DNA from: a virus
DNA length: 56,796 nucleotides
Direction: 5' to 3' (one strand)
IMG/VR virus record: IMGVR_UViG_3300042261_000652
Location: 64,001-120,796 of that record
Shown: positions 2,604-31,548 of the stretch, piece after piece
Numbering within the stretch: position 1 is the first letter of the stretch
Layout: each line of letters begins with the position of its first letter
The notes under the pieces: model-generated
The model's input: only the letters and a program-made list of their open reading frames with translations
The model's database searches: none
What the model was told of the DNA's origin: nothing
Made by a program: the position numbers and the translations under genes

Positions 2604-3251
2604 ATGCATAAAGACAAAAGCAATCTGGATATAGTACGCTCATATCTTAGCGGAGAAAGACCGTGGGTCCAAATTGGATATACGGGAAAAAAGTATACCA
2701 AACGCAATGTAGGAGATCGGTGGACGGATAATCGGGGGATAGAGTGGGAACAGAAAGTGGGCGGACCTACCAGAGTCAATAAAATGGCTGAAGCTATTCG
2801 AGAGGCCCGAGGAAAGGACGTATGCAAAAAGTGTCAAAAAGAGATGCGATGGGGAGATAAAACTGATCAACTCTTCTTCCGCAAAACAGGACTTTGCACC
2901 GATTGTCTTATAACTTATGAAACTAATTTGCGAATACTCGGAATCCATTCCGAATATGAGACCATGAAATTGGCTTCCAATGAAATGGGGTTTTTAAAAG
3001 ATGCACGAGATAAAATTTCCGAAACCCTGAATTTCTTTCAACAGGATGGTGGCGATGTTACTATGATATGCAACTCGGAGGGATTTGTAGAACGGTGGAA
3101 AAATACCAATAGAGAGCAAATCATAGAAGATGCCAAGCGAGATTTGAAATTGATCAAAAAGTACATTGCGAATCTTTCCAAACTTAAAAATAAGTGTAAA
3201 AAGATATATGTAGAAAATGCCAAAAAATACAATTTAGAAATTTATGTCTAA
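2604..3251 (+). CDS. Hypothetical Zn-ribbon protein (215 aa); positional candidate for small terminase subunit
   Basis: Lies immediately upstream of the large terminase and overlaps it by 8 nt; CxxC...CxxC ('CKKCQKE...CTDC'); no direct sequence recognition. Confidence 0.4.
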   Translation: MHKDKSNLDIVRSYLSGERPWVQIGYTGKKYTKRNVGDRWTDNRGIEWEQKVGGPTRVNKMAEAIREARGKDVCKKCQKEMRWGDKTDQLFFRKTGLCTDCLITYETNLRILGIHSEYETMKLASNEMGFLKDARDKISETLNFFQQDGGDVTMICNSEGFVERWKNTNREQIIEDAKRDLKLIKKYIANLSKLKNKCKKIYVENAKKYNLEIYV

Positions 3252-6200
3252 CAAGCCGCAGCTTTCCTATCAAGAGTTGATCAAGCAAGAATATACAAAG
3301 TGCTTGGAATCTCCGGTGTATTTTATGAAATATTACGCCAAGATTCAACATCCAGTTCGGGGAACGATTTTATTTAATTTATATAAGTTTCAAGAAGAAA
3401 CTCTTCAGGAGTTTCACGATTATAAGTTTAATATTATTTTAAAATCTCGTCAGATGGGCATTTCTACTCTTGTTGCTGTATATTCGCTGTGGCTGATGAT
3501 TTTCCATAAGGACAAGAATATTCTGCTGATTTCATTAAAACAGGATGATGCGAAGGAAGTTATCGGCAAGGTTAGATTCGCAAATGAAAATCTCCCCACG
3601 TGGCTTAAAGTAAAATGTCTTGAGGACAATAGATTATCACTCAAATTTGCAAATGGATCTCAAATTAAAGCCGCATCAACTACAAAGAAGTCTGGAGTAG
3701 GACACGCTTTAAGTTTATTAATAATAGATGAGGCGGGGCTAATCGATGAAGCGGATGAATTGTGGACTTCGGCACAGCCGACGCTATCAACCGGAGGATC
3801 GTCGATTGTATTATCTTGCGTAACCAAAGATACAATGGTAATAACATCGAAAGGAATAAAAGAAATCGGATCATTTGTAGATAAATCGAAAATTGGCGGA
3901 TATGAAATAGATAAATATAACGTGATGGGAGTCGATGGCATAAGATGTGGAAACTTATTTCACAACAACGGAAAACAGAAAACAAACATTTTAAAAACAA
4001 AGTTTTCGTCCATCGAATGCACCGATAATCATAAGGTGTGGGCGTATAAGCAAAGTACAAAAAGATATGATTGGTATGAGTCATCTCAATTGGAAGTAGG
4101 TGATTTTTTATCACTTCAATATGGGCAAAAAATGTGGGGAAATAATGATGATATATCATCATTTACGCCGTCGATATCGCCCAAGATACATTCTCCATAT
4201 CATCCAAAAAATATTAGTATAGAAATGGCGTATTTACTTGGATTGTATATTGCTGAAGGAAGTGTATACAAAGTCGTAGACAAAAATGATAACTTTGTGG
4301 GAGGAATTCTAACTATCACGTGTGGAGACAATATTTCGTGGGTATTTGATAAGCTTAATTTGACATATAGTTGTCTGGATGGATTACATTATACTATATC
4401 AAATAAAAATTTTATTGAGTTGATGGAATATTTAGGATTTGACGTATCGGTAAAGGCAAATCAAAAATATATTCCTCCTCGATTAATGGAGATGTCTGGC
4501 GACAATATTAAATGGTTATTACGTGGTATTTTTGATGGAGATGGGTGCAGCACAAAAAAAGCCGTAAAACTTACATCTACATCTTGCAAGTTAATAAAAC
4601 AAGTTCGGATGTTGCTTCATAATTTTGGTATTCTCGGAAGTATAGTATCGGAAACGAAAGACAGTTTGAATTCGAGAAATGGAAAAATAAAACATAATCA
4701 TGATTCGCACAATTTAGAAATTTGTGGACGCTATATGATTGATTTTTTCAATCGAGTTGGGTTTGGATTAGAACGAAAACAAACACTCCGGCCACCCATA
4801 GTAAAAATGAATGTTGGTCGTGCATGTAGTAAAGATGTCATTCCCGATTCATTGGAATTGGTTAAGGAAATAGTCCAGGCAACCGGAATGACGTATACCG
4901 AAATAAATAAGCGATGCAATATTCAAGTCAATGGCTACTGTAGTCCGACCAAGTATAAGAGCAATAATATATCTCGGCAAAATGTTATTACATTGTATGC
5001 TATGTTTTATGGATTATTATCAGCCGAAACACAAATTTACTGGAATAATATAATAAAATCCGACGTCGTGTGGTGTGAAATTACGTCCATCGAACATTCG
5101 GAAAATGAAACGTTTGACTTTTCTCTTCCTGAAAATAGTGATGATTTTTGGTGTCATTCTATCATTTATAATGGAATTATTGGGCACCAAACTCCAAGAG
5201 GAGTTGGTAATTGGTTTCATAGAATGTGGCAAAGTGCAGAAGAAGATAATGGCAAAAAGGTAGGAAAGAATGGATTTCACCCTATTAAATTGCCTTGGAA
5301 TTTACACCCCGAACGAACCGAGGAGTGGAGGCGAGTAGAAGGTGAAAAAATAGGAAGTTCTAAAAAAGCTGCGCAAGAATTTGACTGCGACTTTTTAGCA
5401 TCGGGTGACAACGTTGTAGAATTGTCCATCGTAGAATTCTATAAAAAGAATATACAAAAAGATCCCACGGATATTCGTGGAGCAGATCGTGGCTTATGGG
5501 TATGGCAATATCCTGATTATACCCAGACATATTTATTGTCCGCAGATACCGCTCGTGGCGATGGTAGCGATTTTTCGGCAGCACACGTTATTAATGCGAC
5601 GACATTGGAACAATGTGCCGAATATAAGGGACAGTTAGGAACCAAGGATTTTGGAAATTTGCTGGTGGCGCTTGGAACGGAATATAATAACGCATTGCTT
5701 ATTCCCGAGCGGGAAAATGTTGGATGGGCGACAATTCAGGCAATTATAGATAGAAACTATCCAAACTTGTTTTATATGACTAAGGATCTAAAATATGTAG
5801 ATCCGGACACGCAATTTTCAAACAATTACTATTCGGAAGATAAAAAGGCAGTACCGGGATTCACGACAAATATAAAAACCCGTCCCATCATTATTTCTCA
5901 GTTAGAATTATATTTCAGAGAAAAAGCAATACGAATATATTCTAAAAGAACTATCGCCGAGCTTGAAACATTTATTTGGGAAAATGGTAAAGCCCAAGCT
6001 ATGAAGGGATATAACGACGATTTAATATTATCGCTTGGGATTGGACTGTGGGTTAGAGATACCGCCCTGCGGTTACGACAAGAGGGAATAGATATAACAA
6101 AAGCATCTTTAAATCATTTGTCTATGAATAAAATGGATCAGACGCCATTTTATAAGACACAAACGGCTCAGCGTGGACGAGAACAGTGGACTATGAAGAC

Positions 6201-6258
6201 GGGAAGGCAGGGAATCGGACAACACAATACGGAAGATCTGAACTGGTTAATACGCTAA
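3244..6258 (+). CDS. Terminase large subunit (T4 gp17-like), interrupted by an intein
   Basis: Walker A 'KSRQMGIST', Walker B 'LLIIDEAG', then insertion starting 'CVTKDT'; resumes with gp17-like 'IIGHQTPRGVGNWFHRMW' (T4: TTPNGLNHFY). The 1004-aa length exceeds a normal ~600-aa terminase by the intein size. Confidence 0.85.
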   Translation: MSNKPQLSYQELIKQEYTKCLESPVYFMKYYAKIQHPVRGTILFNLYKFQEETLQEFHDYKFNIILKSRQMGISTLVAVYSLWLMIFHKDKNILLISLKQDDAKEVIGKVRFANENLPTWLKVKCLEDNRLSLKFANGSQIKAASTTKKSGVGHALSLLIIDEAGLIDEADELWTSAQPTLSTGGSSIVLSCVTKDTMVITSKGIKEIGSFVDKSKIGGYEIDKYNVMGVDGIRCGNLFHNNGKQKTNILKTKFSSIECTDNHKVWAYKQSTKRYDWYESSQLEVGDFLSLQYGQKMWGNNDDISSFTPSISPKIHSPYHPKNISIEMAYLLGLYIAEGSVYKVVDKNDNFVGGILTITCGDNISWVFDKLNLTYSCLDGLHYTISNKNFIELMEYLGFDVSVKANQKYIPPRLMEMSGDNIKWLLRGIFDGDGCSTKKAVKLTSTSCKLIKQVRMLLHNFGILGSIVSETKDSLNSRNGKIKHNHDSHNLEICGRYMIDFFNRVGFGLERKQTLRPPIVKMNVGRACSKDVIPDSLELVKEIVQATGMTYTEINKRCNIQVNGYCSPTKYKSNNISRQNVITLYAMFYGLLSAETQIYWNNIIKSDVVWCEITSIEHSENETFDFSLPENSDDFWCHSIIYNGIIGHQTPRGVGNWFHRMWQSAEEDNGKKVGKNGFHPIKLPWNLHPERTEEWRRVEGEKIGSSKKAAQEFDCDFLASGDNVVELSIVEFYKKNIQKDPTDIRGADRGLWVWQYPDYTQTYLLSADTARGDGSDFSAAHVINATTLEQCAEYKGQLGTKDFGNLLVALGTEYNNALLIPERENVGWATIQAIIDRNYPNLFYMTKDLKYVDPDTQFSNNYYSEDKKAVPGFTTNIKTRPIIISQLELYFREKAIRIYSKRTIAELETFIWENGKAQAMKGYNDDLILSLGIGLWVRDTALRLRQEGIDITKASLNHLSMNKMDQTPFYKTQTAQRGREQWTMKTGRQGIGQHNTEDLNWLIR
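3817..5172 (+). mobile_element. Intein with LAGLIDADG homing-endonuclease domain inside the terminase ATPase domain (C-terminal junction approximate)
   Basis: Begins with Cys (tgc 3817) right after Walker B. Two LAGLIDADG-type motifs 'LLGLYIAEGSV' and 'LLRGIFDGDGC'; block F/G-like 'VVWCEITSIEHSENETFDF...FWCHSIIYN' ending in Asn. Exact C-terminal splice junction could not be fixed (next residue Gly). Confidence 0.55.
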
Positions 6259-6321: not shown

Positions 6322-9300
6322 ATGCCAAACCAAACACAAATTAAGCCATTTGACGATCAGATTTTAGACGTTAAAAAGCAATCGCTGTATGCGAGATTGA
6401 AGAGATTATTCTCTACCGATGTTATTGTACGTAACGTAGGCGGCAAACAGCTTAAAATAAAAGATACCGATAATATTATGTACGCAACGGATAGAAATTC
6501 GTTGCGTGACAGATTTAATCGTATTCGCTCGACTGCATATAATGCATACACACGTGATTTTGCGATGTCATATCAAGCGGCACGGATGGATTTATTTCGT
6601 GACTATGATTGTGTGGGACCAGATACCATTATTCCATTACCGGATGGATCACGACCTACCATTGCAGAACTGGCCGAGAAATATAAAAATAATCCACAGG
6701 AAAGATTCTGGGTTTTTTCCTATGATCACGAAACCGATTCCATAAAACTTGGGAAAGCATATCATCCAAGGAAAAAGAAAGGCGTCCGCCAAGGTTATAA
6801 AATAACTTTTGATAATGGACAATCTATAATCGGAAGTTTGAAACATCCATTTTTAATGCGGGATGGAAGCAAAAAACGCCTTTTCGAATTGCGTGTTGGA
6901 GATTCTGTAATGCCTTTCTACGAAAAAGAATACGGATATAATAAACATGGATTTAAACGCTATCGTAGGTTATATAACTTTTCGAGAGGATGGCAGCAAG
7001 AGCATAAAATAGTCGCCGAGCAGTTTTATAGACCACTTGAAAAAAATGAAGTGATTCATCATAAAAACTTCAACGGGTCGGATAACACGCCCGAAAATCT
7101 TGAAATAATGGATTGGAAAGAGCATAAACGATTTCATTCCGACCACAACAAAAATGTATTATGGGGCGAGAAAAACTATAAAAATCAACTCCATAAGTTG
7201 AAGTCTCATCCAAATTATGTTAACCGGGCGGTTCATCATTGGAATGGAGAACGTGTCGGGTCGAGTAATCCATTTTATGGAAAACAACATACTATTGAAT
7301 CTAATGAGAAAAGATCAAAATCCTTAAAAGAAGCATTTATTAATAAAGATCAAACAGGAAAAAAGAATCCAAACTATAGAGATGATGTTACGTTTGATAA
7401 TGTAAAACAAAAAGCATTTGAATATTATAAAGAATATTCAAAAATAAACATATGGGATTTTATTAAACACATTCATTGCGATCATTCTACCCTTCAAAAT
7501 CGACTAAAAAAAGAAGGACATAACTGGAAATCTTTTAAACGAGAAGTTGAAAACACTTTAAATCATAAAATAATATCAATCGAGAGCGTTGGAGAGGTTG
7601 AGGTTTATGACGTTACAGTTGAAAAATATGAAAATTTTGCTACGGATAGTTGTATAGTCGGAAACACGATGGACATGGACCCCATAATGTGTTCAGCATT
7701 AGATATTTACGCAGATGAATGCTTGACCTACAATGAAGTAGGTAAAATGATAACAGTCCACTCGAATAATAATAACGTAAAACGAATTCTTGAGAATTTA
7801 TTCGATGAAATCTTAAATGTTAGATTTAATCTATGGTCGTGGGTGAGAAATATGTGTAAATATGGAGATTTCTATCTTAAATTATATATTACTCCCGAGT
7901 ATGGGATTTATATGGTAGAGCCAATTTCCGCATATAATGTTGAACGGATTGAGAATTCTGACCCCTCTAATAAGCGATATGTTAAATTTCAAATTCGTCC
8001 TACAGATACAACACAATCAGAGGTTCTCGAAAATTATGAAGTGGCGCATTTTCGTCTAATTAATGATAGTAATTTCTTGCCGTACGGTAAGAGTTTAATA
8101 GAAGGAGCTAGACGAGTTTGGAAGCAACTATCTCTGATGGAAGATGCTATGCTTATCCATCGCATTATGCGTGCTCCCGAAAAGCGAATTTTTTATACTG
8201 ATATTGGAAATATTCCGCCAAATGAAGTCGATGCTTATATGCAAAAAATGATGGATAAAATGAAGAAAATTCCATACATGGATGAGCAATCGGGCGATTA
8301 TAATTTGAGATTTAATCTTCAAAATATGGTGGAGGATTATTATATTCCAGTTCGTGGCGGTGACAGCGGAACAAAGATTGATACTCTTGGTGGTATGGAA
8401 TGGACTGGAACTGAAGATATAGAATATCTTCGCAATAAATTGATGTCTGCGCTCAAAATTCCCAAAGCATTTTTAGGATATGAAGAGGGAATTAGCGGAA
8501 AGGCGACCTTGGCATCGGAAGATGTTAGGTTTGCTCGCACAATTCAACGATTACAATGTATTATTGCATCGGAATTAGGCAAAATTGCCACCGTTCATTT
8601 ATATGCTCAGGGATATAGAGACGAGTCTCTTGTGGATTTTGAATTAGAATTAACCAATCCATCAACCATATTTGAGAAAGAAAAGGTTGAAATATGGTCT
8701 GATAAGGTTGCGGTTGCTACAGATATGGTGGAAAATAAGTTTTTCTCGTATAAGTGGGCTTATAAGAACATCTTCAATATGTCGGAGGATGATATCGAGA
8801 AAGTTAGAGAAGAAATCGTCGAGGATGCCAAACAAAGGTATAGATTCGCATCTATTGAAGAAGATGGGGATGATCCTGCCAAGCCGTTTAAGAAGATTGG
8901 GGGCAAAGGTGGCGATGACGAAGATGGCGACAAAGATATCGGAGATCTCGGCGGTGGTGGAGGTCTTGGGGGTGGAATGCATAGCAGTGGCGGTCTCGGA
9001 GGTTCAGACTTGGAAGATATGGATAAATTTGGAGAAGACGGCCCGGGTTTAGACGATTTGGCGGACATAGAGGGTGGCAATGAAGAAGGAGAAGGGGATG
9101 AAGACAAGGAAACGGAAGATGAAACGGGTCCAGAAAAGTCTAAAAATATAAAAGAATATGCAGATCCGGCCAAGGACCGAGATCAAAGTGGTGAACACGA
9201 TGCTCGTAGAGATCATCCTATGGCAGAAGATCCGCTCGGACAAGATGCCATGAATGCCAATACAAAGACAAATAGTGAACGTAAAAAGAAAAGTGCAATT

Positions 9301-9501
9301 GCCCATAATTATGAGGGGGGAAGTCCATTGAGCCGATTGCATGAACGAAATAAGCCCGTAGTTGATGGGGCTATGATCAAAAGTTTATCCGAATTTTTAA
9401 ATAAAACAGGAAAGAATATAAAAACGGAGCTTTTAAATGAAATTATAAGGGACAATCCGAATAATAAATCTATGATGGATGAGTCCAACATTTTAGAATA
9501 A
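6322..9501 (+). CDS. Portal protein (T4 gp20-like) with an intein and a long acidic/Gly-rich C-terminal extension
   Basis: Extein resumes with the gp20-like 'DPIMCSALDIYADE' motif; insertion begins 'CVGPDTIIPLPDG' (Hint block A); gene sits directly after the terminase. Confidence 0.8.
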   Translation: MPNQTQIKPFDDQILDVKKQSLYARLKRLFSTDVIVRNVGGKQLKIKDTDNIMYATDRNSLRDRFNRIRSTAYNAYTRDFAMSYQAARMDLFRDYDCVGPDTIIPLPDGSRPTIAELAEKYKNNPQERFWVFSYDHETDSIKLGKAYHPRKKKGVRQGYKITFDNGQSIIGSLKHPFLMRDGSKKRLFELRVGDSVMPFYEKEYGYNKHGFKRYRRLYNFSRGWQQEHKIVAEQFYRPLEKNEVIHHKNFNGSDNTPENLEIMDWKEHKRFHSDHNKNVLWGEKNYKNQLHKLKSHPNYVNRAVHHWNGERVGSSNPFYGKQHTIESNEKRSKSLKEAFINKDQTGKKNPNYRDDVTFDNVKQKAFEYYKEYSKINIWDFIKHIHCDHSTLQNRLKKEGHNWKSFKREVENTLNHKIISIESVGEVEVYDVTVEKYENFATDSCIVGNTMDMDPIMCSALDIYADECLTYNEVGKMITVHSNNNNVKRILENLFDEILNVRFNLWSWVRNMCKYGDFYLKLYITPEYGIYMVEPISAYNVERIENSDPSNKRYVKFQIRPTDTTQSEVLENYEVAHFRLINDSNFLPYGKSLIEGARRVWKQLSLMEDAMLIHRIMRAPEKRIFYTDIGNIPPNEVDAYMQKMMDKMKKIPYMDEQSGDYNLRFNLQNMVEDYYIPVRGGDSGTKIDTLGGMEWTGTEDIEYLRNKLMSALKIPKAFLGYEEGISGKATLASEDVRFARTIQRLQCIIASELGKIATVHLYAQGYRDESLVDFELELTNPSTIFEKEKVEIWSDKVAVATDMVENKFFSYKWAYKNIFNMSEDDIEKVREEIVEDAKQRYRFASIEEDGDDPAKPFKKIGGKGGDDEDGDKDIGDLGGGGGLGGGMHSSGGLGGSDLEDMDKFGEDGPGLDDLADIEGGNEEGEGDEDKETEDETGPEKSKNIKEYADPAKDRDQSGEHDARRDHPMAEDPLGQDAMNANTKTNSERKKKSAIAHNYEGGSPLSRLHERNKPVVDGAMIKSLSEFLNKTGKNIKTELLNEIIRDNPNNKSMMDESNILE
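6610..7665 (+). mobile_element. Intein in the portal gene carrying an HNH endonuclease domain
   Basis: Starts with Cys (tgt 6610) after 'FRDYD'. HNH-like 'HHKNFNGSDNTPENLEIMDWKEHKRFHSDHN'; block F/G 'VYDVTVEKYENFATDSCIVGN' followed by Thr; the flanks rejoin to a gp20-like sequence. Confidence 0.6.
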
Positions 9502-9708: not shown

Positions 9709-10595
9709 CTCAACAGAAAAAAATGCGCCATTCTAAATTCAGAAATACCGGTATTCTGTTTGAATTGCTGACAAAGCAAGTCACCGCAGATATTATTGCC
9801 GGTAAAGATATATCCGCAGCAAAAAACCTATTACATAAATACTTTCGAGAAAACACCGAGCTGGGACGAGAGTGGCAATTATATAATGCGGTGTTGGCCG
9901 AAAAAATCAAAGATGAGGCTCACGCAGAACGGTTTTTTTCGGTTGTGTTAGAAGCTCGCAAGAAACTCAATAATCGCCAACTCTCTCTTCTCAAATATGA
10001 TTTAATTAAGGAAATTAAAGATTCATATCCAATAGATGAAATGTTAAAAGCCCCCGTGCGAAATTATAGAGTATTAGCCTCCATTTATAAAATCTTTGAA
10101 GATCTCGCATCTTCGGATTGTAAGTTCGACGTAAAAGAAATATATCGGGCAAAAACTTGCATAGTGGAGCATATAGTGGATAAGCCAAAGGCCGCACATT
10201 CTGAAGATGAGCTTATCAATTATTATAAAACTCAAAGCGAGGATATACGGCTTCTTACTTATAAATTGTTATGTGAAAAATTTAATGAAAAATATGAAAG
10301 TACCTTGGACGATGATCAAAAATCAGTATTGCGAGAGTATATCTGTAATGTTGCTAATACAAATAATTTTGATGCATTTGTAAAAAAGAAAGTATCTGAA
10401 ATTAAACAAGCATTGGTTGAGCATATTGATAAAATCAAAACATCCGATGTTATGAAGATAAAGATAAAAGAAGTCATCAACCAATTGGATAAAATCAATC
10501 CCGGTAAAATTGTTAAAGATAACCACGTTATGGTGCTTATGCTTTCATATGAATTATTGAATGAGATTAAACTACAATTGAAAGAATCAAAATGA
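9705..10595 (+). CDS. Hypothetical protein (296 aa)
   Basis: ORF in the operon between portal and protease; 4-nt overlap with the next gene. Confidence 0.5.
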   Translation: MTQQKKMRHSKFRNTGILFELLTKQVTADIIAGKDISAAKNLLHKYFRENTELGREWQLYNAVLAEKIKDEAHAERFFSVVLEARKKLNNRQLSLLKYDLIKEIKDSYPIDEMLKAPVRNYRVLASIYKIFEDLASSDCKFDVKEIYRAKTCIVEHIVDKPKAAHSEDELINYYKTQSEDIRLLTYKLLCEKFNEKYESTLDDDQKSVLREYICNVANTNNFDAFVKKKVSEIKQALVEHIDKIKTSDVMKIKIKEVINQLDKINPGKIVKDNHVMVLMLSYELLNEIKLQLKESK

Positions 10596-12151
10596 ATATA
10601 GATATTAAAGTTCTCACGAAAATATATTCTACATATGGAGTAAATGCCGTCAAGAACTATCCTCAAGTTGATGCAGTGCTTTCTAACTCGAAGCCATACG
10701 TTGATGTAGCTCCTGCTGAATGTCAATCGGTTCTTAAACGGGGCGGATATCAATTTATGACATCCAAGGGGTATTTTAAACCGTCATCGACTGATAGTGA
10801 TGATGGACAGGTGATTTATTATATAAAATCCAACAATTGGTTTATATGGGTATGGGAACATATGTTTCGCATTCTTACGGGGGAAAAACAACTTTCGAAA
10901 TGGATTCTTGGAAATGAGAAATATCCCAAAAGCAAAGCCGTCTCTTTTATGGAAACGTATAAAAAAATGGTGGGGATAGATACTGCTGCTTCTGCCAAAA
11001 ATAAACCGGAAATGCCATCGGATATGGATCGTGTAGCAGGAATTTTTGACTTGGATATTAAAGGTGGGGGCGAACGCATGGTTGATTATAAGCCTACAAT
11101 AGTAGATCCCACGGATGCGCTTATTGCTAAATTAACAAAGCAGGCTGGTTCAAAGAAGACTTTACCCGCCGATACGATAATTGATGTGGGACTGAAAGCT
11201 AAGAACGAAAAGAACACCAAACTTCTTCAGTTTCTCAGTACCATTAAGCCTTTAAATGAAAATTTTATAAAAAAGGATGATCTTCAGAAACTTATTCGTG
11301 GAATAATTAAAACTGTAATGGAAGGGGTTACGAAAAAGAATGATGAAAAACTTTGTGAGGATGGAGGAGCCGCAGTCGCAGGAGATGGCGGGATGTCTAC
11401 GACCTCAGATGTGTCTCCAGTAACAGGTCCAAATGCATTTAAGAGTAAAAAGTCAATTAATAAATCATCTCGGCCCGTTACGGAAAATGAGTTTGATGGT
11501 AAAGAGATGCCTAAACACAATGCGAAATGTACGCCCGAGGAAGAAGCGGAAGCTAATCGTATAGCTAAAGAAATATGGGGATGGCAGGTTGGACCCATGA
11601 GACTGCATTCTATTGATAGACTTGGAGGGAAACATTTTTGGAGTGATGAACATTCGGTATTAAAGAGCAGACACATTATTTGTAAGCAGCGGGATGGTGC
11701 GTGGATATATGTCAAGGGAGACGGCCTGCAAGCAATGTGGGTGAAATTTGAGAATGAACCATTGGCAGAAATAACAACAACCAATTCTGTGGCCGGGTAT
11801 AATATTCCTGGTGCATTTTCTCGTGCGGGGGGTAGTGCGAGGGGAGTGGAAAGTTCTGACAAGCTTGGCTATCAATTAACTAAAATTGGCAAAGAGGATA
11901 TGAAGTTAAAGGCCGACAAGCTTTGTGAAGATGTGGTAAAAAATCTTAACAATTTAAGAAGAGCGCAGTTAGCTCACGATGATGCTGTGCCGAGCGATGA
12001 TCCGGATGCGATAGAATGTCCCGATTGTGGTGGTGATATTGAAATAACTAGCCAAGGTCAAAGTCGAGGCTGCTGGTGGACACACGGAAAGTGTCCCGAA
12101 TGTGGATATAAATATCAGAATGATAATTTCGATCAGCAATATGATTTATGA
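10592..12151 (+). CDS. Hypothetical protein (519 aa) with C-terminal Zn-ribbon
   Basis: 'ECPDCGGD...GKCPECGYKY' at the C-terminus; translationally coupled to both neighbours. Confidence 0.5.
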   Translation: MNIDIKVLTKIYSTYGVNAVKNYPQVDAVLSNSKPYVDVAPAECQSVLKRGGYQFMTSKGYFKPSSTDSDDGQVIYYIKSNNWFIWVWEHMFRILTGEKQLSKWILGNEKYPKSKAVSFMETYKKMVGIDTAASAKNKPEMPSDMDRVAGIFDLDIKGGGERMVDYKPTIVDPTDALIAKLTKQAGSKKTLPADTIIDVGLKAKNEKNTKLLQFLSTIKPLNENFIKKDDLQKLIRGIIKTVMEGVTKKNDEKLCEDGGAAVAGDGGMSTTSDVSPVTGPNAFKSKKSINKSSRPVTENEFDGKEMPKHNAKCTPEEEAEANRIAKEIWGWQVGPMRLHSIDRLGGKHFWSDEHSVLKSRHIICKQRDGAWIYVKGDGLQAMWVKFENEPLAEITTTNSVAGYNIPGAFSRAGGSARGVESSDKLGYQLTKIGKEDMKLKADKLCEDVVKNLNNLRRAQLAHDDAVPSDDPDAIECPDCGGDIEITSQGQSRGCWWTHGKCPECGYKYQNDNFDQQYDL

Positions 12152-13011
12152 TTAGTTTAAGAAGAATGGTAGAATCGTACAATGTGTCGGGTCAATATTA
12201 CGACCTTGGGAGAGATTTTGCCAATTTTCGTCGGATGATTGATGGGGCTGACCAGCAAATCCGACAACAATATGAAAAGGCAATTTCTGAGAAATTGGTG
12301 GGTAAACGAGTCCGTGCCCGTGCCTCCCGTGGATATAAACAATATGTTAAAGATTATGAATTTGACATTGCCAGAATTACACTGGACGATTATTATGATA
12401 ATTTTGTAGTTGTCGCTTATGATTCTACTACTCCCAAAGCAAAAGAATATTTTCTAAAGCCCGGATTTAAAGTGCAGATTCTCGGGTCTTCTACAGGTCA
12501 ACCATCTCCGCAAAAAGGAAATAAACCCGGGGATGCGGTTTCGCAAAAGCCGACAGTTCCTCCGCAACAACATCAGACGCAATCGGATACGATGCCGCCT
12601 CAATCTACAGTACAACCGGGATCTTCAACGAATGAAAAACCTCTCAGAGAAGCGCCTGAAAAGCAGAGTGGCCTTTATGATGCATATCCAATCGATCAAA
12701 TTGAAAAGGATATTAAACAATGGCTTCCAACAATTCTCATCAAGCCCGATATAGCAATGCGGGACTTCATACGTGGACTTGGATGGCAACGTGATTTGGG
12801 ACGAGGAACGATAGTAGCATTGTATGATTTGAAAATTCCGTCGGATTATATTAAACCTGAAATTAAAGTAGATCATATAAAAGAATTGATCACGGGACAA
12901 AATATATCGCAGACCGGCTCAGCCTCCATTCAATATGATGTATCGCAGATGAAGCTGGATGATACGAAAGACGAGTGGCAAATTCGAATAAAAAAGACGA
13001 CGACAAAGTAA
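12148..13011 (+). CDS. Hypothetical protein (287 aa); candidate prohead-core/internal protein
   Basis: N-terminus 'MISLRRMVES' resembles the MIKLKxLLxE leader of the effector family; sits where T4 has the prohead core genes gp67/gp68, between portal and protease. Confidence 0.5.
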   Translation: MISLRRMVESYNVSGQYYDLGRDFANFRRMIDGADQQIRQQYEKAISEKLVGKRVRARASRGYKQYVKDYEFDIARITLDDYYDNFVVVAYDSTTPKAKEYFLKPGFKVQILGSSTGQPSPQKGNKPGDAVSQKPTVPPQQHQTQSDTMPPQSTVQPGSSTNEKPLREAPEKQSGLYDAYPIDQIEKDIKQWLPTILIKPDIAMRDFIRGLGWQRDLGRGTIVALYDLKIPSDYIKPEIKVDHIKELITGQNISQTGSASIQYDVSQMKLDDTKDEWQIRIKKTTTK

Positions 13012-13015
13012 GTGT

Positions 13016-14749
13016 ATGAATAACGAAAATAAAAAACTTTTGATGGAATGTATTACATTCGAAGCCGATCCACGGCTGCTTAAAGAATCTAGCGATCATC
13101 CAAATCAGCCATTCCGAGTGAGTGGAATTTTACAACGCAAAGGTAAAAAAAACCAAAATGGCCGTATTTACCCCGATGAAATTCTAATGCGTGAAGCTGA
13201 AAAATATTCAAACGTTTTCATAAAAGATAGACGGGCGATGGGTGAATTAGATCATCCGGAATGTAAAAGAGTTGGAACTGAGATACTTACGAAAGATGGA
13301 TGGAAAGATTTGCGTGATGTTAAAATCGGAGATATAATTCCGACGTTAAATACCACAACAGATACGTTGGAATATAATCCAATCGAACGAGTGATCAACG
13401 AACCATATAATGGTAAAATGATATCTATCATTGGAAAAAATATAGATACATTGGTTACTCCAAACCACAGATTTATTTTAAAAGATAGAAATGGAAAATT
13501 TCTGGAAAAAACCGCACGAGAAATGTTGGATATATCGAAAATAAATAAGAATCCACATTTATCAATTCCAGTTGTAGTTAATAATTGGAATGGATTTGCA
13601 TATGATGTATATAAAATAGATGCCATTCCAACAGAAGAAATATTAAAACACGCATCTTTAGAATTTGGAATTAAACAAACCACGACATTAAATTTAGATG
13701 CATCTGCATGGTTTTCATTTTTAGGATTTTATTTGGCCGAAGGACATTGTGATAATAGAGAAACTCAAAGCGGCTATGGAGTATACATCTCTCAAAACAA
13801 AGGAGAACTCGCCGATAAATTCCGAGAAATTCTATCACAATTAAGTCCAGAATTACAGTGGCACGAAAATGATAAGGGAGAAAACGCCATCATTTTTACG
13901 ACATATGATGCTCGTTTATGGACATATTTATCTAAATTGGGAAATCAATATACAAAATATATTCCCGATGATATAAAATTGGCATCTGTAGATTTACTTC
14001 AAAATTTATATGACTGGTATTTGAATGGAGATGGAACAGTTGTAGGAGAATATGATAGATCTTCCATATGTTCCGTATCCAAACAGTTAATGGAAGACTT
14101 TTACGAAGTAATATTAAAATTGGGAATGACCGGAGTTATTAAAGAACAAGTATCAAAGGATGATTATATGTTCGCCGGAAGATTAATAGAAATTAAAAAT
14201 AAAGTTCCATTGTATAGATTGTGGATTAAAACTGCGAAAGAGGTTTATCTAGATTTTCGATTTATAAAAATTGAAGAAGTCGATTACAATGATACCGTTC
14301 ATTGTGTGACTGTAAAGAACGGAACGTTTTATTGCCGGGATAGAAATAAAGCATTCTGGACTGGAAACTCCTCGGTGGTTAATTTAAAAAATGTCTCCCA
14401 CAATGTTATAGAAATGCATTGGCAGGGAGATGACTTGGTGGGCACAGTAGAAGTTCTCACAACTCCAAATGGAAATATTTTGCGGGAATTATTCAGAAAC
14501 GGAATTAAGTTGGGCATTTCAAGTCGTGGACTTGGAAGTTTAAAGAAAATTTCAGAAAGTTCGGCCATTGTGGGCGATGACTTTGAACTTATTGCGTTTG
14601 ATTTCGTTTCAAATCCCAGCACACAGGGGGCTTTTATGGCACCCCAAGGGCAAGTGGCATTATCAGAAGGCATTATAAAAAATCCAATGACTAATAAATG
14701 GGAACGCACTGACGATATCATTAGAAATATTCTCTCAGAATTGGGTTAA
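13016..14749 (+). CDS. Prohead protease (T4 gp21-like) interrupted by an intein
   Basis: 'GELDHPE' then insertion; extein resumes 'SSVVNLKNVSHNVIEMHWQGDDLVGT...GISSRGLGSL', matching recalled gp21 'GELNHP...MWWKGNDVYG...SSRGLGS'. Extein length is ~208 aa against 212 aa for gp21. Confidence 0.75.
   Translation: MNNENKKLLMECITFEADPRLLKESSDHPNQPFRVSGILQRKGKKNQNGRIYPDEILMREAEKYSNVFIKDRRAMGELDHPECKRVGTEILTKDGWKDLRDVKIGDIIPTLNTTTDTLEYNPIERVINEPYNGKMISIIGKNIDTLVTPNHRFILKDRNGKFLEKTAREMLDISKINKNPHLSIPVVVNNWNGFAYDVYKIDAIPTEEILKHASLEFGIKQTTTLNLDASAWFSFLGFYLAEGHCDNRETQSGYGVYISQNKGELADKFREILSQLSPELQWHENDKGENAIIFTTYDARLWTYLSKLGNQYTKYIPDDIKLASVDLLQNLYDWYLNGDGTVVGEYDRSSICSVSKQLMEDFYEVILKLGMTGVIKEQVSKDDYMFAGRLIEIKNKVPLYRLWIKTAKEVYLDFRFIKIEEVDYNDTVHCVTVKNGTFYCRDRNKAFWTGNSSVVNLKNVSHNVIEMHWQGDDLVGTVEVLTTPNGNILRELFRNGIKLGISSRGLGSLKKISESSAIVGDDFELIAFDFVSNPSTQGAFMAPQGQVALSEGIIKNPMTNKWERTDDIIRNILSELG
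13262..14368 (+). mobile_element. Intein with LAGLIDADG endonuclease domain inside the prohead protease
   Basis: Starts with Cys (tgt 13262) after 'DHPE'. LAGLIDADG motifs 'FLGFYLAEGHC' and 'LYDWYLNGDGT'; block F/G 'VHCVTVKNGTFYCRD...AFWTGN' followed by Ser. Confidence 0.6.
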
Positions 14750-14802: not shown

Positions 14803-16491
14803 ATGAATGATGCAATCATCAAATGGATAGCGGATAATTTGCAATATTTTCGTGGATTAATTTGCAAAAAATGCAAGCGAGAATGGTTTGAAAAGTATGG
14901 ATTCTTAGATAAATGGCAAGAAATACACGATATTACGTTATTTCTCGATGCATTAAATCCAACATTTCCTCAGCGAGTATGGCATATTGTCCATGATCAT
15001 TTGTCGACAATAAAATGCGCCAATCCTTCCTGTCAAAACTCTCCAAAATTCTGGTCTTTTAATATTGGATATTTGAGAACTTGTTCTACATCTTGTGCTC
15101 AATATGACCCACTTACTCAAGAAAAAATACAAATCACCAATCTCGATAAATATGGTTATAAATATGGGTTGCAGAATCCGGATATAATTAAGCGAAGAAT
15201 ATCTTCCATTCGAGAAAAATATGGCGTAAATAATATTTCACAAGTCGATGGCATATCGGAAAAGAAACAAGAAACGTGTTTAAAAAATTATGGAACGAAA
15301 TGGTTTTTGGAAAGAAGTGATATTGTTAGAGAATGTTTGGTGAGAAAGTACGGAGTAGAAAATGTTCAACAAGTTGACGAAATATCATCAAAAACATCTC
15401 AAACCAGAACAAATAATTTTTATGATGAATTAGTCGGGTCGGACAGATTTAAAGGAAAAGTAGTTCCATCATTTTCCAAGGAAGAATATGATGGAGTGGG
15501 AAAAGAATATAAATTTAAATGTACGTCGTGCTTTTCTGAATTCTCCTATGTTTTACGGTGGGACCGCATTCCGAGATGCCCCATTTGTTTCAAAGGATCA
15601 TCCATATTTGAACAAGAAATTACAAATTATATCAAAACGCTATTGCCTGCGACTGATATAATGGAAAATGTGAAGTCGATCTTATCCAACAATAGAGAGT
15701 TGGATATTTATATTCCATCTAAAAATTTGGCGATTGAGTGCAATGGATTATTTTGGCACGGGGAAGTTGGAGGAAATAAAAATAGAAATTATCATTTAAA
15801 TAAGACAATTGAATGTGAATCTAAAAATATCCATTTAATTCATATTTTCGAAGATGAGTGGATTTTGTCTCCGGATATTATTAAAAACAGATTGGCCCAC
15901 ATAATGGGATTACACAAAGTTGCCAAATCCATATATGCCAGAAATTGTGAAATAAAAGAAGTATCAAATAAAGATAAAAATAATTTTCTTAATGCCAATC
16001 ATATTCAAGGAACCGATAGAAGTAAAATACGATTGGGATTATTTTATAATAATGATATGGTCGCAGTTATGACATTTGGAAGTAGGCGAATATTTACCAA
16101 TTCTGTCTATATTGAAAATGAGTATGAACTTATACGATATGCCACTTCTATTCCAGTTGTGGGCGGAGGAAGTAAGCTGATGACGCATTTTATAAAAACA
16201 TATTCGCCAAAGAAAATTATCTCGTATGCGGATAGGCGATGGACTTATTATAAAAATAATTTATATGAGCGGATTGGGTTTAAAAAAGTATCAGATGGAA
16301 CACCCAACTATTGGTATTTTGGTCGTCAAGGAAATTATCGTAGATTTCATCGATTTGGATTTGCAAAACATACTTTATCTAAGCGATTGGCCTTTTTTGA
16401 TCCGAGTCTCACGGAATGGGAGAATATGAAAAATAATGGATGGGACAGGATTTGGGATTGTGGAAGTTTAAAGTATGAAATGGCATTTTAA
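14803..16491 (+). CDS. Zn-finger protein with KYGVxNxxQVD tandem repeats and a Vsr/DUF559-like PD-(D/E)xK endonuclease domain; candidate free-standing homing endonuclease
   Basis: 'CKKCKREW', 'CANPSCQN...CSTSC'. Repeats 'REKYGVNNISQVDGISEKK / LKNYGTKWFLERSD / VRKYGVENVQQVDEISSK'. Nuclease core 'ELDIYIPSKNLAIECNGLFWHGE' matches the Vsr/DUF559 pattern (VDF...AIEvDG.FWHg). Confidence 0.6.
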   Translation: MNDAIIKWIADNLQYFRGLICKKCKREWFEKYGFLDKWQEIHDITLFLDALNPTFPQRVWHIVHDHLSTIKCANPSCQNSPKFWSFNIGYLRTCSTSCAQYDPLTQEKIQITNLDKYGYKYGLQNPDIIKRRISSIREKYGVNNISQVDGISEKKQETCLKNYGTKWFLERSDIVRECLVRKYGVENVQQVDEISSKTSQTRTNNFYDELVGSDRFKGKVVPSFSKEEYDGVGKEYKFKCTSCFSEFSYVLRWDRIPRCPICFKGSSIFEQEITNYIKTLLPATDIMENVKSILSNNRELDIYIPSKNLAIECNGLFWHGEVGGNKNRNYHLNKTIECESKNIHLIHIFEDEWILSPDIIKNRLAHIMGLHKVAKSIYARNCEIKEVSNKDKNNFLNANHIQGTDRSKIRLGLFYNNDMVAVMTFGSRRIFTNSVYIENEYELIRYATSIPVVGGGSKLMTHFIKTYSPKKIISYADRRWTYYKNNLYERIGFKKVSDGTPNYWYFGRQGNYRRFHRFGFAKHTLSKRLAFFDPSLTEWENMKNNGWDRIWDCGSLKYEMAF

Positions 16492-27790: not shown

Positions 27791-29566
27791 ATGCAACAAG
27801 TAAAAGAACTATTAACTGATGCTTTGAACCCTCAAGCACGTCTCATGGCTGAGACTCGTGGACTTGTCTCCAAGTGGGATAGGACAGGATTGCTCGAAGG
27901 ATTGAAGAATGATATTGACAAGTCGAATATGTCGGTATTGCTTGAAAACCAAGCAAAACAACTGATTGAAGAATCATCCGTGACCGGAACTCAGGCTAAC
28001 TCTGAGCAATGGGCGGGTGTTGCTCTTCCATTGGTTCGCCGTGTGTTCGCCGAAATCGCTGCTAAGGAATTCGTATCCGTCCAGCCAATGAACCTTCCTG
28101 CGGGATTGGTGTTCTATCTGGACTTCAAATATGGATCAACCTCGGGCGTATTTAGTGCCGATTCATCTACTAACTACTCATCGCTGTTCGGTGGAATTAG
28201 CCAGAGTTTGAATCTTGGTGGAACTACCATCAGTGATCCAAATAACCAGTGGAAACTTGGTTCGACCAATTACCCTGCTGGTGGTCTCTATGGCCCCGGT
28301 CGCAATGCTTATACTGTAAATGATAATCTTTGTGCAACCCAGTCCGTCGCAGTTGGTACGGCATCCCTCGCCGATATTAATTTCGATACTGGCAACGCAA
28401 ATGACCCGATCAATAGCAGTATTTCCGCATCTCTCGCCGCAGGCACATTGTTCACCCTCACCACCGTTGGGTTAACAACAAACTGCAACACTCAGTTTGG
28501 ATCATATCCTGATCTCAACAACGTCCGTACGTTTATGCCCGTAACGACCCCTGCGTCGTCTTCGGCAGCATTCGTAACGTGGTTCCCGGGTTTCACCCGC
28601 TTTAGCGGAACTGAAGCCGTGTTCGTTGTGTCATCCTCAGCGGCTAATGCACAAACCTTGGCCAATGGCGCAAATCAGAGTGGTATTATCCACGTCAATT
28701 TGAGCGTCCAGCCGAAGGATACTGCTCGTGGTGACTTCGAAGATCGCCTCGGCAAGTCCACTACGGATACCGGTCTTAATAAAGATATCGGAATTCCCGA
28801 AGTTAACCTCGAGATGCGCTCCGAGCCTATCGTAGCCAAGACTCGTAAATTGAAATCAGTATGGACTCCAGAACTCGCTCAGGATCTCAACGCCTACCAC
28901 TCGGTTGACGCTGAAGCTGAGTTGACCGCTCTTCTGTCCGAATATGTGTCAATGGAAATCGATCTCGAAATCCTTGACATGCTTATCGTCAATGCCCCCA
29001 ACATCAACAAGGAGCGTTGGAGCGCACGCCTCAACCGTGAAATCCTCAAGACTGGTACCAACAGCTACCAAGTAGTGGATCAAGTAACGGCTGGCGCAGG
29101 TGGATATTACACCAAGTCAACTTGGTATCAGACTCTTGGTAACAAGATTCAGAAAGTATCCAATAAGATTCACCAATTGACCCTCCGTGGTGGTGCAAAC
29201 TTCATGGTGGTCGGTCCCGATGTGGCAACAATCCTGGAGTCAATCCCCGGATTCGTAGTCAACACCGACGGTGACTCCGCCAAATTCGCAATGGGCGTTT
29301 CTCGTGTTGGTAGCTTCGCAAGTCGCTTCCAAGTCTACAAGAACCCATATATGCAAGAGAATCTAATTCTCATGGGATTCCGTGGAAATAACTTCCTCGA
29401 AACTGGCGCAGTATATGCTCCATACATTCCACTTATCCAGACCCCATTAGTATATGATCCTGTCAATTTCACCCCAAGACGTGGTGTTATGACGAGGTAT
29501 GCTAAGAAGATAGTCAGACCCGAGTTTTATGGGCTGATCTACGTATCTGATACAAATCAGGTCTAA
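27791..29566 (+). CDS. Major capsid protein (T4 gp23-like)
   Basis: 'WAGVALPLVRRVFAEIAAKEFVSVQPMNLPAGLVFYLDFKYG' aligns with recalled gp23 'WQPVLMGMVRRAIPNLIAFDICGVQPMNSPTGQVFALRAVYG'; N-terminal propeptide with L-x-E sites (e.g. 'KQLIEE'); strong terminator downstream. Confidence 0.8.
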   Translation: MQQVKELLTDALNPQARLMAETRGLVSKWDRTGLLEGLKNDIDKSNMSVLLENQAKQLIEESSVTGTQANSEQWAGVALPLVRRVFAEIAAKEFVSVQPMNLPAGLVFYLDFKYGSTSGVFSADSSTNYSSLFGGISQSLNLGGTTISDPNNQWKLGSTNYPAGGLYGPGRNAYTVNDNLCATQSVAVGTASLADINFDTGNANDPINSSISASLAAGTLFTLTTVGLTTNCNTQFGSYPDLNNVRTFMPVTTPASSSAAFVTWFPGFTRFSGTEAVFVVSSSAANAQTLANGANQSGIIHVNLSVQPKDTARGDFEDRLGKSTTDTGLNKDIGIPEVNLEMRSEPIVAKTRKLKSVWTPELAQDLNAYHSVDAEAELTALLSEYVSMEIDLEILDMLIVNAPNINKERWSARLNREILKTGTNSYQVVDQVTAGAGGYYTKSTWYQTLGNKIQKVSNKIHQLTLRGGANFMVVGPDVATILESIPGFVVNTDGDSAKFAMGVSRVGSFASRFQVYKNPYMQENLILMGFRGNNFLETGAVYAPYIPLIQTPLVYDPVNFTPRRGVMTRYAKKIVRPEFYGLIYVSDTNQV

Positions 29567-29712: not shown

Positions 29713-31548
29713 ATGACGATAAATCAAAACGAAATAACCATAACTGAAGAAGAGTCTAAATGTTGCAAATTATGTAACAAGATATTTAATTCTGGAAGAT
29801 TAATGATTTGGCATGTCAAGAAAGAACATAAACTCGATTTTAAAAATTATATTTTACAAGTTTATTATGGCGGAATTAACCCAATATGTCAAAAAACTGG
29901 AAAAAATGTGACTTTTAAGGCACATAAACTCGGACCTTGGTTTAGTAATTATTCAAAAAACAATTTCCCACGTTCTCCCCATTCCGCAGAATCCAAAGAG
30001 AAAATTAGAATTGGATGTGAAAATGCCGCTCTTAAAAAATTTGGAGTAAAAAATGTATTTCAATCTGAGTGGTGCAAACTCAAGATTAAATCTACTATTA
30101 GAGAAAAATATGGAGTAGATAATCCAATGCAGGTGGATGATTTCAAAAAGAAAATGATAAATGCCTTTTTTGAAACTATAAAAAATAGACCAATTAAAGT
30201 TTATCCTTGTAAAAATATAGACCCTAATCGGCCATCAACACTAGAATTAGATTTTGCATCTAAGTTAACAAAGAATAATATTCACTTTATAACTCCATTT
30301 GTATATGATGGATATAGGTTTGATTTTTACATACCAGCTATAAATTCTATAATTGAGATAGACGGGGAAACATTTCACAAAAATAATTTGGAATCATTGA
30401 CTTTAATGACCATAAACGGAAGTAGAAATGATTACAATAAAAATATTATGATAGATGATTCGCTATATAATTTTTATAGAATTAGATATAACCCCGCCGA
30501 TTTTAATTTTGATGATATTATTTCATTAGAATCGATTATACATAACACAAAATATTATCCCAACTATGGAATTAAATACAAACAGAAAATTGTTAATAAA
30601 GAATATTTTGCGAGATATATAGCAAACAAAGGAAAGGATAAATTGCAAAAATATTCTCCATTGATTCTCAAATTCATTCGTACGTTTCAGCCAGAATTTC
30701 CATATCCCGATCTTGAGGAACAATTATTCGATGTTATTGGTAAATTACATAATACAAATATATCGAAAGTATATAATGATAATGCAAAAGAGTTTTCGAA
30801 TAATATATCAACGGCGGGCCACAATTATTTAAAACATCATTTCAAATCATATTGGAAGAGTAAATTTAAGGGAACATTATCCCCAGTCGAGGCATGGAAA
30901 GATGATAAAATAATGCAAGAAGTTATCGATTATCGAATTGGATGTAATAATAGCGGGGAAGTATTCGACTTTAGTTTACATCAATTAGTCAGAGGATTAT
31001 CAGCCCGAAGAATTGGGGTGTCATTTTTTAAACCGCTACTTGCGGCGGCAATATATAAGATCATATTGGGAAATATGCCCAATCCGGTTGTATTGGACCC
31101 TTGCTGTGGATTTGGGGGAAGATTATTGGGGTTTAAATCCATATATCCAAATGGGACATATGTTGGATGTGAGCCTAATGTAGAAACATACAATGAATTA
31201 TTACAACTAGTTAAAAATGCCGGATGGAACAATGTTGAAATACATAATTGTAAGTTCGAGAATTTCAATGATAAAAATCGGCATAAATTTGATTTAATAT
31301 TTACAAGTATTCCATATTTTGATATTGAAGAGTATAGTAATAATACAACATATCCTTCATTTGATGATTGGAAAAATACATTTATTTCTGCTATTGAAAA
31401 ACACGGAGGGACGGGCTGTTATATTAATGCTCCGTCGGAACTGTGTGAAAAATTAAAATGGGTAAACGTGGCATACACAATCAAATCAAATCGGAGTCAT
31501 TTTGATAAACGAGCCGGGACGAAAAAAGAATTGATTGTTAAGTTATAA
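29713..31548 (+). CDS. Multidomain protein: C2H2-like Zn finger, KYGVxN repeats, Vsr/DUF559-like nuclease core, C-terminal amino-DNA-methyltransferase domain
   Basis: 'CCKLCNKIFNSGRLMIWHVKKEHK'; 'LKKFGVKNVFQSEW...REKYGVDNPMQVDDFKKK'; 'YRFDFYIPAINSIIEIDGETFHKNN'; methyltransferase motif I 'VLDPCCGFGGR' and motif IV 'FTSIPYFD'. Confidence 0.6.
   Translation: MTINQNEITITEEESKCCKLCNKIFNSGRLMIWHVKKEHKLDFKNYILQVYYGGINPICQKTGKNVTFKAHKLGPWFSNYSKNNFPRSPHSAESKEKIRIGCENAALKKFGVKNVFQSEWCKLKIKSTIREKYGVDNPMQVDDFKKKMINAFFETIKNRPIKVYPCKNIDPNRPSTLELDFASKLTKNNIHFITPFVYDGYRFDFYIPAINSIIEIDGETFHKNNLESLTLMTINGSRNDYNKNIMIDDSLYNFYRIRYNPADFNFDDIISLESIIHNTKYYPNYGIKYKQKIVNKEYFARYIANKGKDKLQKYSPLILKFIRTFQPEFPYPDLEEQLFDVIGKLHNTNISKVYNDNAKEFSNNISTAGHNYLKHHFKSYWKSKFKGTLSPVEAWKDDKIMQEVIDYRIGCNNSGEVFDFSLHQLVRGLSARRIGVSFFKPLLAAAIYKIILGNMPNPVVLDPCCGFGGRLLGFKSIYPNGTYVGCEPNVETYNELLQLVKNAGWNNVEIHNCKFENFNDKNRHKFDLIFTSIPYFDIEEYSNNTTYPSFDDWKNTFISAIEKHGGTGCYINAPSELCEKLKWVNVAYTIKSNRSHFDKRAGTKKELIVKL

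Follow-up and report, generated by a model that had tools for sequence, protein, structure and literature searches.

A predicted homing intein in the active-site motif of a T4 gp21-like prohead protease

Known intein hosts are overwhelmingly ATPases and nucleic-acid enzymes. In full-size inteins such as PI-SceI of yeast VMA1, the archaeal VMA inteins, PI-PfuI and PI-PkoII, a HINT splicing domain is split by a two-motif LAGLIDADG domain. We analyzed a 56,796-nt stretch of DNA from an uncultured T4-like phage (IMG/VR record IMGVR_UViG_3300042261_000652, positions 64,001 to 120,796; hereafter the window), in which the gene of a T4 gp21-like prohead protease carries an in-frame insert predicted to have the same architecture. 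The insert shares Cys1, the block B TxxH motif and the terminal Asn with these inteins, and its predicted structure matched them at Foldseek E-values of 1e-12 to 1e-14. However, it is only 10–12% identical to them, has a penultimate Gly instead of His, a Cys at F:4 and a Ser at position +1, and its host is a serine protease of a phage, not an ATPase or a polymerase.

Inteins of phage TerL, portal, helicase and ribonucleotide reductase genes likewise lie in conserved motifs of essential genes, occur sporadically and often lack the penultimate His (PMC5050341), but their host protein is not the prohead protease. An intein in another serine protease, the chloroplast ClpP of Chlamydomonas eugametos (Wang & Liu 1997, cited in PMC5050341 and PMC4031507), is also non-canonical at the penultimate residue (cited in PMC5050341), although ClpP is unrelated to the S77/herpesvirus-assemblin fold and its gene is organellar, not viral. 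In MarsHill-like and AR9-like jumbo phages, the prohead scaffold/protease gene is also split by a self-splicing mobile element (bioRxiv 10.1101/2020.12.14.422802); these elements are group I introns that leave the RNA, whereas the element described here, which is matched by no intron RNA model, would be excised from the protein. The same insertion point (GEL[DN]HP[DS]/C ... TGN/S; slashes mark intein boundaries), a length of 365–366 aa and the same domain order are found in the inteins of two GenBank phages, LR756508.1 and 7757/SRB7757, yet these are only 32–38% identical to the protein of the window.

The literature searched, a scope that excluded most subscription journals and InBase, yielded no paper reporting an intein in a prohead or head-maturation protease, and the text of an actinobacteriophage intein survey contained neither 'protease' nor 'prohead'. 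What is new here is the host protein, apparently unpublished in this role, while the splicing element itself is ordinary.

A predicted full-size intein splits the protease active site

In the sequence-only reading of this DNA, a 577-aa open reading frame (ORF) was claimed to reduce to a gp21-like extein of ~208 aa once a 369-aa Cys-initiated insert was removed. Translation of 13262..14368 reproduced this insert exactly (CKRVGTEILT...DRNKAFWTGN, preceded by GELDHPE and followed by SSVVNLKNVSHNVIE...). It is in frame with the protease, and the reading frame is unbroken over 577 codons (Table 1). The insertion point lies between Glu82 and Ser452 of the precursor; the predicted joined extein, which reads ...GELDHPE-SSVVNL..., has 208 aa and a mass of 23.4 kDa, with GELDHPESSVVNLK as the predicted junction peptide after splicing. 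The two claimed LAGLIDADG motifs were located as FLGFYLAEG and LYDWYLNGDG, and the claimed AFWTGN end followed by Ser was likewise found (FWTGN at 14354..14368, Ser at 14369..14371). The intein had a GC content of 32.0% (23.6% at third codon positions, GC3), and the exteins one of 38.9% (GC3 33.2%).

The flanks of the insert rejoin into a contiguous protease. Against Pfam, the full ORF matched Peptidase_S77 (2.5e-21) in two separate stretches, and the joined flanks matched it in one stretch (aa 34–175, 1.1e-26, 94 bits against a cut-off of 27), a level far above chance. The joined extein also aligned with T4 gp21 (PDB 5jbl; phmmer, 1.8e-15) across the junction, and it was contiguous across the junction with 79 uninterrupted homologues as well, which bore out the gp21-like assignment made earlier. 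The genomic context is that of head genes on the same strand, with TerL at 3244..6258, a T4-type portal at 6322..9501 and a Gp23-type capsid gene at 27791..29566.

T4 gp21 uses a His-Ser-Asp triad (PMC5694885). Two Ala positions of the 5jbl chain align with His80 (ELDHP) and with extein Ser133, which is Ser502 of the precursor (GISSRGLGS), and this Ala pair would fit a construct in which the catalytic His and Ser were inactivated. Asp529 is the putative third triad residue, assigned from conservation and alignment. When 86 intein-bearing homologues were aligned, Ser502, Ser503, Arg504 and Asp529 showed no variation and His80 almost none; in the verified same-site homologues described below, the His, Ser502 and Asp529 were each present in 82/82. 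By these alignments the intein sits two residues past the predicted catalytic His80, so that in the precursor the insert would separate this His from Ser502 and Asp529 and split the triad. The earlier reading had placed the insert next to the active-site region, and its position can now be given more sharply.

To assess the residues of the intein itself, we used 82 verified same-site (site-a) full-size inteins with 39–77% identity, selected by a filter that included Asn369 and the penultimate Gly; sequences with an intein five residues upstream were left out of this set. The splicing residues were nearly invariant (Cys1 82/82, Thr B:7 81/82, His B:10 82/82, Cys F:4 81/82, Ser+1 80/82), as were those of the endonuclease (first-motif Glu/Asp 81/82, Lys 82/82, second-motif Asp 82/82). 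In the unfiltered set of intein-bearing homologues, Cys1 and the terminal Asn were each present in 122/122, the penultimate Gly in 118/122 and Ser+1 in all but one. This Gly occurred in all 118 inteins at protease site a, one-codon-shifted ones included, and the four sequences with His belonged to the other site. Gly is also the penultimate residue of the C. eugametos ClpP intein. The homologues in alignment A1 (85 sequences) were on average 53% identical to the window in the endonuclease, 56% in the HINT domain and 63% in the extein; since the endonuclease domain was conserved about as well as the HINT domain, it does not appear to be decaying. The nearest intein-bearing relatives were ~76% identical in protein, a distance at which synonymous sites would be saturated.

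We consider it very probable that the insert is a real homing intein, a selfish element in the active-site motif of the protease that both splices and homes. Several points weigh against this reading. The Pfam Intein_splicing model matched the full ORF at 7.9e-7 and 29.4 bits, under its 35.8-bit cut-off. Among NCBIfam models, no dedicated intein model matched the insert, and the matches obtained were weak ones to archaeal PolII, RpoA'' and IF-2 models, which contain inteins. Searches of PDB sequences with phmmer gave only marginal matches (KlbA 0.0022, AceL NrdHF 0.017, PI-PkoII 0.079). The two His residues that commonly help the Asn to cyclise (G:6 and F:13) are missing. Splicing and DNA cleavage by the protease intein are predictions only. 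A second S77-like sequence was not found in the 56,796-nt window, but the window is part of the phage genome and a second protease may lie elsewhere. Finally, recombination inside the gene, as opposed to homing, may account for part of the weak correlation between intein and extein identities (see below).

Because the phmmer matches were marginal, the fold was examined by structure prediction. The AlphaFold2 model of the whole precursor (86-sequence alignment) had a mean predicted local distance difference test (pLDDT) score of 85, with values of 90–98 over the insert and lower ones at both junctions. When it was compared with the PDB by Foldseek, the 15 best matches were all intein homing endonucleases, led by TliVMA (7qsu, 1.7e-14) and PI-SceI (1ef0, 3.4e-14), followed by PhoVMA (7qst), PI-PkoII (2cw7) and PI-PfuI (1dq3). 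Free-standing LAGLIDADG enzymes (I-SceI, I-DmoI, I-WcaI, I-Tsp061I) were matched as well, at about 1e-5 to 1e-6. The Hint similarity on which the earlier reading depended is thus given by the sub-threshold Intein_splicing match together with the model, for which Foldseek returned inteins at ~1e-14. For the endonuclease, the full ORF matched LAGLIDADG_3 above the curated cut-off (7.9e-10; 39.3–41.1 bits against 22.5). Sequence motifs and modelled fold both identify the insert as a putative full-size intein, in which a HINT splicing domain is interrupted by a two-motif LAGLIDADG endonuclease.

The penultimate position (G:6) holds Gly in place of His, and in an alignment to the KlbA intein F:13 is not His and F:4 is Cys. 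In the absence of both His residues, the Asn-cyclisation step (step 3) must be assisted in another way. Phage class 1 inteins are often without the penultimate His (Kelley et al. 2016, PMC5050341), and a phage intein with a penultimate Gly splices faster than its own G-to-H mutant (PMC5050341). Since such Gly inteins splice well, we regard the Gly as an accepted variant that provides no argument against splicing. Cys F:4 (81/82) and Thr/Ser at G:5 recall two of the three residues in the 'WCT' signature of class 3 inteins (Trp B:12, Cys F:4, Thr G:5, no nucleophile at residue 1). Membership of class 3 was rejected and the intein was filed as class 1, because B:12 is Phe and Cys1 is invariant.

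Table 1. Features of the intein-bearing protease gene in the window, and coordinates of the same arrangement in GenBank phage records
Feature	Position	Strand	Remarks
Precursor ORF, S77 (T4 gp21-like) prohead protease plus predicted intein	13016..14749	+	577 aa, 66.0 kDa; stop codon included
N-extein	13016..13261	+	82 aa; C-terminal end ...GELDHPE
Predicted catalytic His80 codon, N-extein	13253..13255	+	Ala opposite in 5jbl construct; conserved in 120/124 aligned sequences
Predicted intein	13262..14368	+	369 aa, 42.7 kDa; Cys1 ... Gly368-Asn369
Intein block A, within CKRVGTEILTKDG	13262..13300	+	Cys1 (13262..13264) is the predicted first nucleophile
Intein block B, TPNH	13457..13468	+	Thr B:7, His B:10
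First LAGLIDADG motif, FLGFYLAEG	13718..13744	+	Catalytic acidic residue is intein Glu160 (ORF residue 242)
Endonuclease block D, TKYIP motif	13952..13966	+	Intein Lys232 invariant
Second LAGLIDADG motif, LYDWYLNGDG	14006..14035	+	Catalytic residue is intein Asp257 (ORF residue 339)
Intein block F, VHCVTVKNGTFYC	14297..14335	+	F:4 is Cys; F:13 is not His
Intein block G, FWTGN, plus Ser+1	14354..14371	+	Penultimate residue is Gly, not His
Terminal Asn369 of intein	14366..14368	+	
Ser+1	14369..14371	+	
C-extein	14369..14746	+	126 aa; N-terminal start SSVVNLKNVSH
Predicted catalytic Ser502, C-extein	14519..14521	+	
Invariant Asp529, C-extein	14600..14602	+	
LR756508.1, uncultured phage, 484 kb	156483..158183		Reads GELDHPD/C...WTGN/SSVVN
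Desulfovibrio/Nitratidesulfovibrio phage 7757/SRB7757 (two records, PV062637.1 and OR395405.1)	3511..5025		Reads GELNHPS/C...LTGN/SPSVN

Distribution of the intein and marks of homing

The exact precursor protein was present on Joint Genome Institute (JGI) and Logan contigs in a search of 5.8 billion proteins. The same search returned >100 clusters (at 90% identity) of 545–620-aa proteins with query coverages of 93–100% and identities of 39–77%. Most of these clusters had the same Pfam domains as the precursor, the precomputed LAGLIDADG_3 or Intein_splicing match being missing in some of the more distant ones, and a few members had been auto-named by JGI as 'Prohead core protein serine protease/Intein splicing domain'. 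A HMMER scan of 1.84 billion 50%-identity representatives yielded 481 proteins at E <= 1e-30, of which the best 150 were mostly single-stretch, full-length matches of intein-plus-protease length. The intein-bearing prohead protease is common to hundreds of environmental phages.

Among 50,697 GenBank phage records, only 3 contained the full arrangement (Table 1), and these three records carry no annotation of any kind. SRB7757 is a cultured lytic, plaque-forming phage of Desulfovibrio vulgaris, and its genome matched the precursor ORF at one place only; the word 'intein' is absent from the SRB7757 paper. That this phage is viable with an intein in its sole S77 gene suggests, indirectly, that a functional protease can be made from such an allele. 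A megablast of 12 kb around the protease gene against GenBank phages gave no match, so the window has no close cultured relative. The earlier description of such an intein as uncommon therefore stands for annotated and cultured phages and for the literature searched; it does not stand for metagenomes, where the >100 clusters form a large intein family.

To examine the alleles without the intein, we compared the joined extein with its 80 best relatives in IMG/VR (61–87% identical). Gene order was kept among them, with the 287-aa gene upstream and the 136- and 337-aa genes downstream. The site was uninterrupted in 79/80, reading RA[ML]GELDHP[ED][ST]x[VI]VNL. The empty sites were of the type GGTGAATTAGATCATCCGGAA/TCCTCGGTGGTTAAT and had 37–50 of 60 nt in common with the joined site of the window, the differences being synonymous. 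A scan of IMG/VR with a pattern from the single intein sequence found no relatives, but patterns from the family alignment did find intein loci; by these family-wide patterns, the intein was present in only ~6 of the best 80 IMG/VR S77 loci.

The identities of inteins and exteins were weakly coupled. Among the 82 verified same-site inteins, pairwise intein and extein identities had a Spearman coefficient of 0.27, which indicates horizontal movement. Discordant pairs were found in both directions (exteins 84% and inteins 40% identical; inteins 79% and exteins 59%). For the window, the nearest extein was that of P0005 (93%), and the nearest intein that of P0010 (76%, with an extein of 71%).

Several other forms of the intein occur at this locus. 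Mini-inteins of 151–175 aa without an endonuclease were found at the same site in P0070, P0078, P0087, P0088, P0090, P0094, P0111, P0118 and others. Some had almost the same termini as the intein of the window (CERVGTEILT...GTFYCRDRNKAFWTGN), which suggests that the endonuclease was deleted within the same lineage. In P0066, P0080, P0086, P0100, P0141 and P0241 the intein is shifted by one codon (GELDHPES/C...GN/SVVNL), with the same ligated product. A second site, site b, lies five residues upstream of site a (GE/CVPAGTE...WTHN/CDHP), and there Leu is replaced by the +1 Cys. Its intein is ~34% identical to that of site a and occurs alone in P0095, P0108, P0075 and P0106. Five proteins (P0076, P0096, P0102, P0110, P0122) carry both inteins, separated by the pentapeptide CDHPD with the catalytic His. 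Empty sites, mini-inteins, an apparently intact endonuclease, the lower GC content of the intein relative to its host gene and the intein/extein discordance would be the expected marks of a homing cycle of invasion, fixation and endonuclease loss.

With this large, diverse and apparently undescribed family, the T4-type head-maturation protease, interrupted in its active site, joins the intein hosts as a new class of protein, and the family's full-size, mini, one-codon-shifted, neighbouring-site and double-intein alleles form a natural set for studying the homing cycle. There is also a risk for annotation, as gene callers see a 577-aa 'hypothetical protein' or a protease of the wrong size.

Proposed mechanism and alternative readings

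The protease gene is translated as one 66-kDa precursor. According to established intein chemistry (PMC4031507), the HINT domain would excise itself in four steps: an N-S acyl shift at Cys1, then trans-esterification to Ser+1, next the cyclisation of Asn369 and finally an O-N shift. The 66.0-kDa precursor would thereby be converted into a protease of 23.4 kDa and a free intein of 42.7 kDa. As suggested by the biology of T4 gp21 (PMC9958956), the protease would be expected to join the prohead core and, once activated, to digest the scaffold and trim the capsid protein only in its spliced form. If only the spliced protease functions in the prohead, it is a sound inference that head maturation of this phage would depend on protein splicing. 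If the splicing rate limits the availability of the protease, capsid maturation would be coupled to intein chemistry. In co-infections, the endonuclease of the free intein would cut alleles that lack the intein, at a coding site (GELDHPESSVVNL) that is very conserved, and repair of the cut allele would then copy the intein in. Such a selfish element, lodged in an active-site motif that the phage needs, would require no benefit to the phage, and its homing would explain the scatter of the intein among related phages.

An intein that splices but whose endonuclease is inactive, a vertically inherited passenger on its way to a mini-intein, is the alternative that survives best, although we regard it as unlikely. 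The mini-inteins at the same site show that endonuclease loss occurs in the family, some homologues have no precomputed LAGLIDADG_3 match, and activity cannot be read from sequence. However, both acidic residues of the LAGLIDADG motifs and the block D Lys are intact here and conserved in 81–82 of 82 homologues, the domain is conserved about as well as the HINT domain, intein and extein identities are discordant, and pLDDT exceeds 90 across the endonuclease.

The intein might instead have been co-opted as a post-translational switch, in which slow or conditional splicing delays formation of the protease active site until late infection, and thereby avoids premature proteolysis or host defences that sense prohead-protease activity. 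The insertion point does split the catalytic triad, and Gly at G:6, a residue that tunes the splicing rate in phage inteins (PMC5050341), is fixed in 118/118. Moreover, the cyclic-oligonucleotide-based antiphage signalling system (CBASS) senses prohead proteases (bioRxiv 10.64898/2026.03.04.709575), and some relatives have two inteins flanking the His. Against this, the intein is a minority allele and the closest relatives are free of it, so it is dispensable; insertion in active-site motifs is the general pattern of selfish homing elements; the sequence has no feature of a known conditional-splicing mechanism; and T4 gp21 is already under its own zymogen control (PMC9958956). We therefore hold it improbable that the splicing rate acts as a safety catch that sets when the active prohead protease appears. 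If it did, timing would matter where defences such as CBASS sense protease activity, and the relatives with two inteins bracketing CDHPD would be an extreme form of the arrangement.

That the insert does not splice at all, being a pseudogene, a tolerated extra domain or a solely self-cleaving element of the bacterial intein-like (BIL) type, is very hard to maintain. The missing penultimate and F:13 His residues would agree with it, and Foldseek also lists BIL domains, with much weaker E-values. However, the frame is intact, and >100 homologues, some with as little as 39% identity, retain all the splicing nucleophiles. The protease triad is invariant in intein-bearing alleles, which is not expected of pseudogenes, and the gp21 fold could hardly accommodate a domain of 369 aa so close (two residues) to its catalytic His. 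The plaque-forming SRB7757 has a single S77 gene, and that gene is interrupted in this way.

Removal at the RNA level, by a group I intron with a LAGLIDADG ORF that is in frame by chance, has a negligible probability and was rejected. Introns do interrupt the prohead protease genes of certain jumbo phages (bioRxiv 10.1101/2020.12.14.422802), but the window has no above-threshold match to any Rfam family, the insert codes for protein over its whole length in a continuous frame with HINT blocks at both ends, and it is predicted to fold as a HINT domain around an endonuclease.

Other mobile elements and genes in the window

Three consecutive head genes of the window (TerL, portal and protease) each contain an intein. 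The TerL ORF (1004 aa) has a LAGLIDADG intein (LAGLIDADG_3, 2.8e-14) from Cys192 to Gln649, at ~3817..5190, followed by Thr; it ends with His-Gln, not His-Asn, and its site (...SSIVLS/.../TPRGVGNWF) looks like the ATPase coupling motif. In the portal ORF (1059 aa) the intein extends from Cys97 to Asn448 (~6610..7665), is followed by Thr and ends with Gly-Asn. It matched Intein_splicing over the full length (4.8e-16), and its endonuclease is of the HNH type (HNH_3), not LAGLIDADG. The spread of one intein within the genome was rejected, as the TerL, portal and protease inteins have no significant similarity to each other (BLASTP E >0.1).

Immediately downstream of the protease gene is a free-standing homing endonuclease gene (14803..16491, 562 aa; phrog_3339, 8e-119; Pfam DUF7487). 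A homologue is found at the same position in LR756508, a distant relative (L001 4762..6462, 44% identity), and others in some intein-less relatives (L013, with 79% identity, L025, L027, L029, L033 and L048). Most close relatives lack this gene, which makes it a second, independent mobile element at the protease locus. Its N-terminal part resembles the DUF7487 segment of another ORF (29713..31548, 611 aa) just after the major capsid gene, which has a methyltransferase-like C-terminus in addition and may be derived from a mobile element. The Gp23-type capsid gene itself has a GC content of 48.1% (GC3 48.9%), compared with 38.0% for the window and ~37% for TerL and portal.

The interval between the portal and protease genes holds two ORFs, 10592..12151 (519 aa) and 12148..13011 (287 aa), neither of which matched a Pfam or PHROG family. 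The 519-aa ORF has a Cys-rich, zinc-ribbon-like C-terminal segment with weak matches only. Most relatives have retained the 287-aa ORF ahead of the protease gene, which makes it a possible scaffold or core protein.

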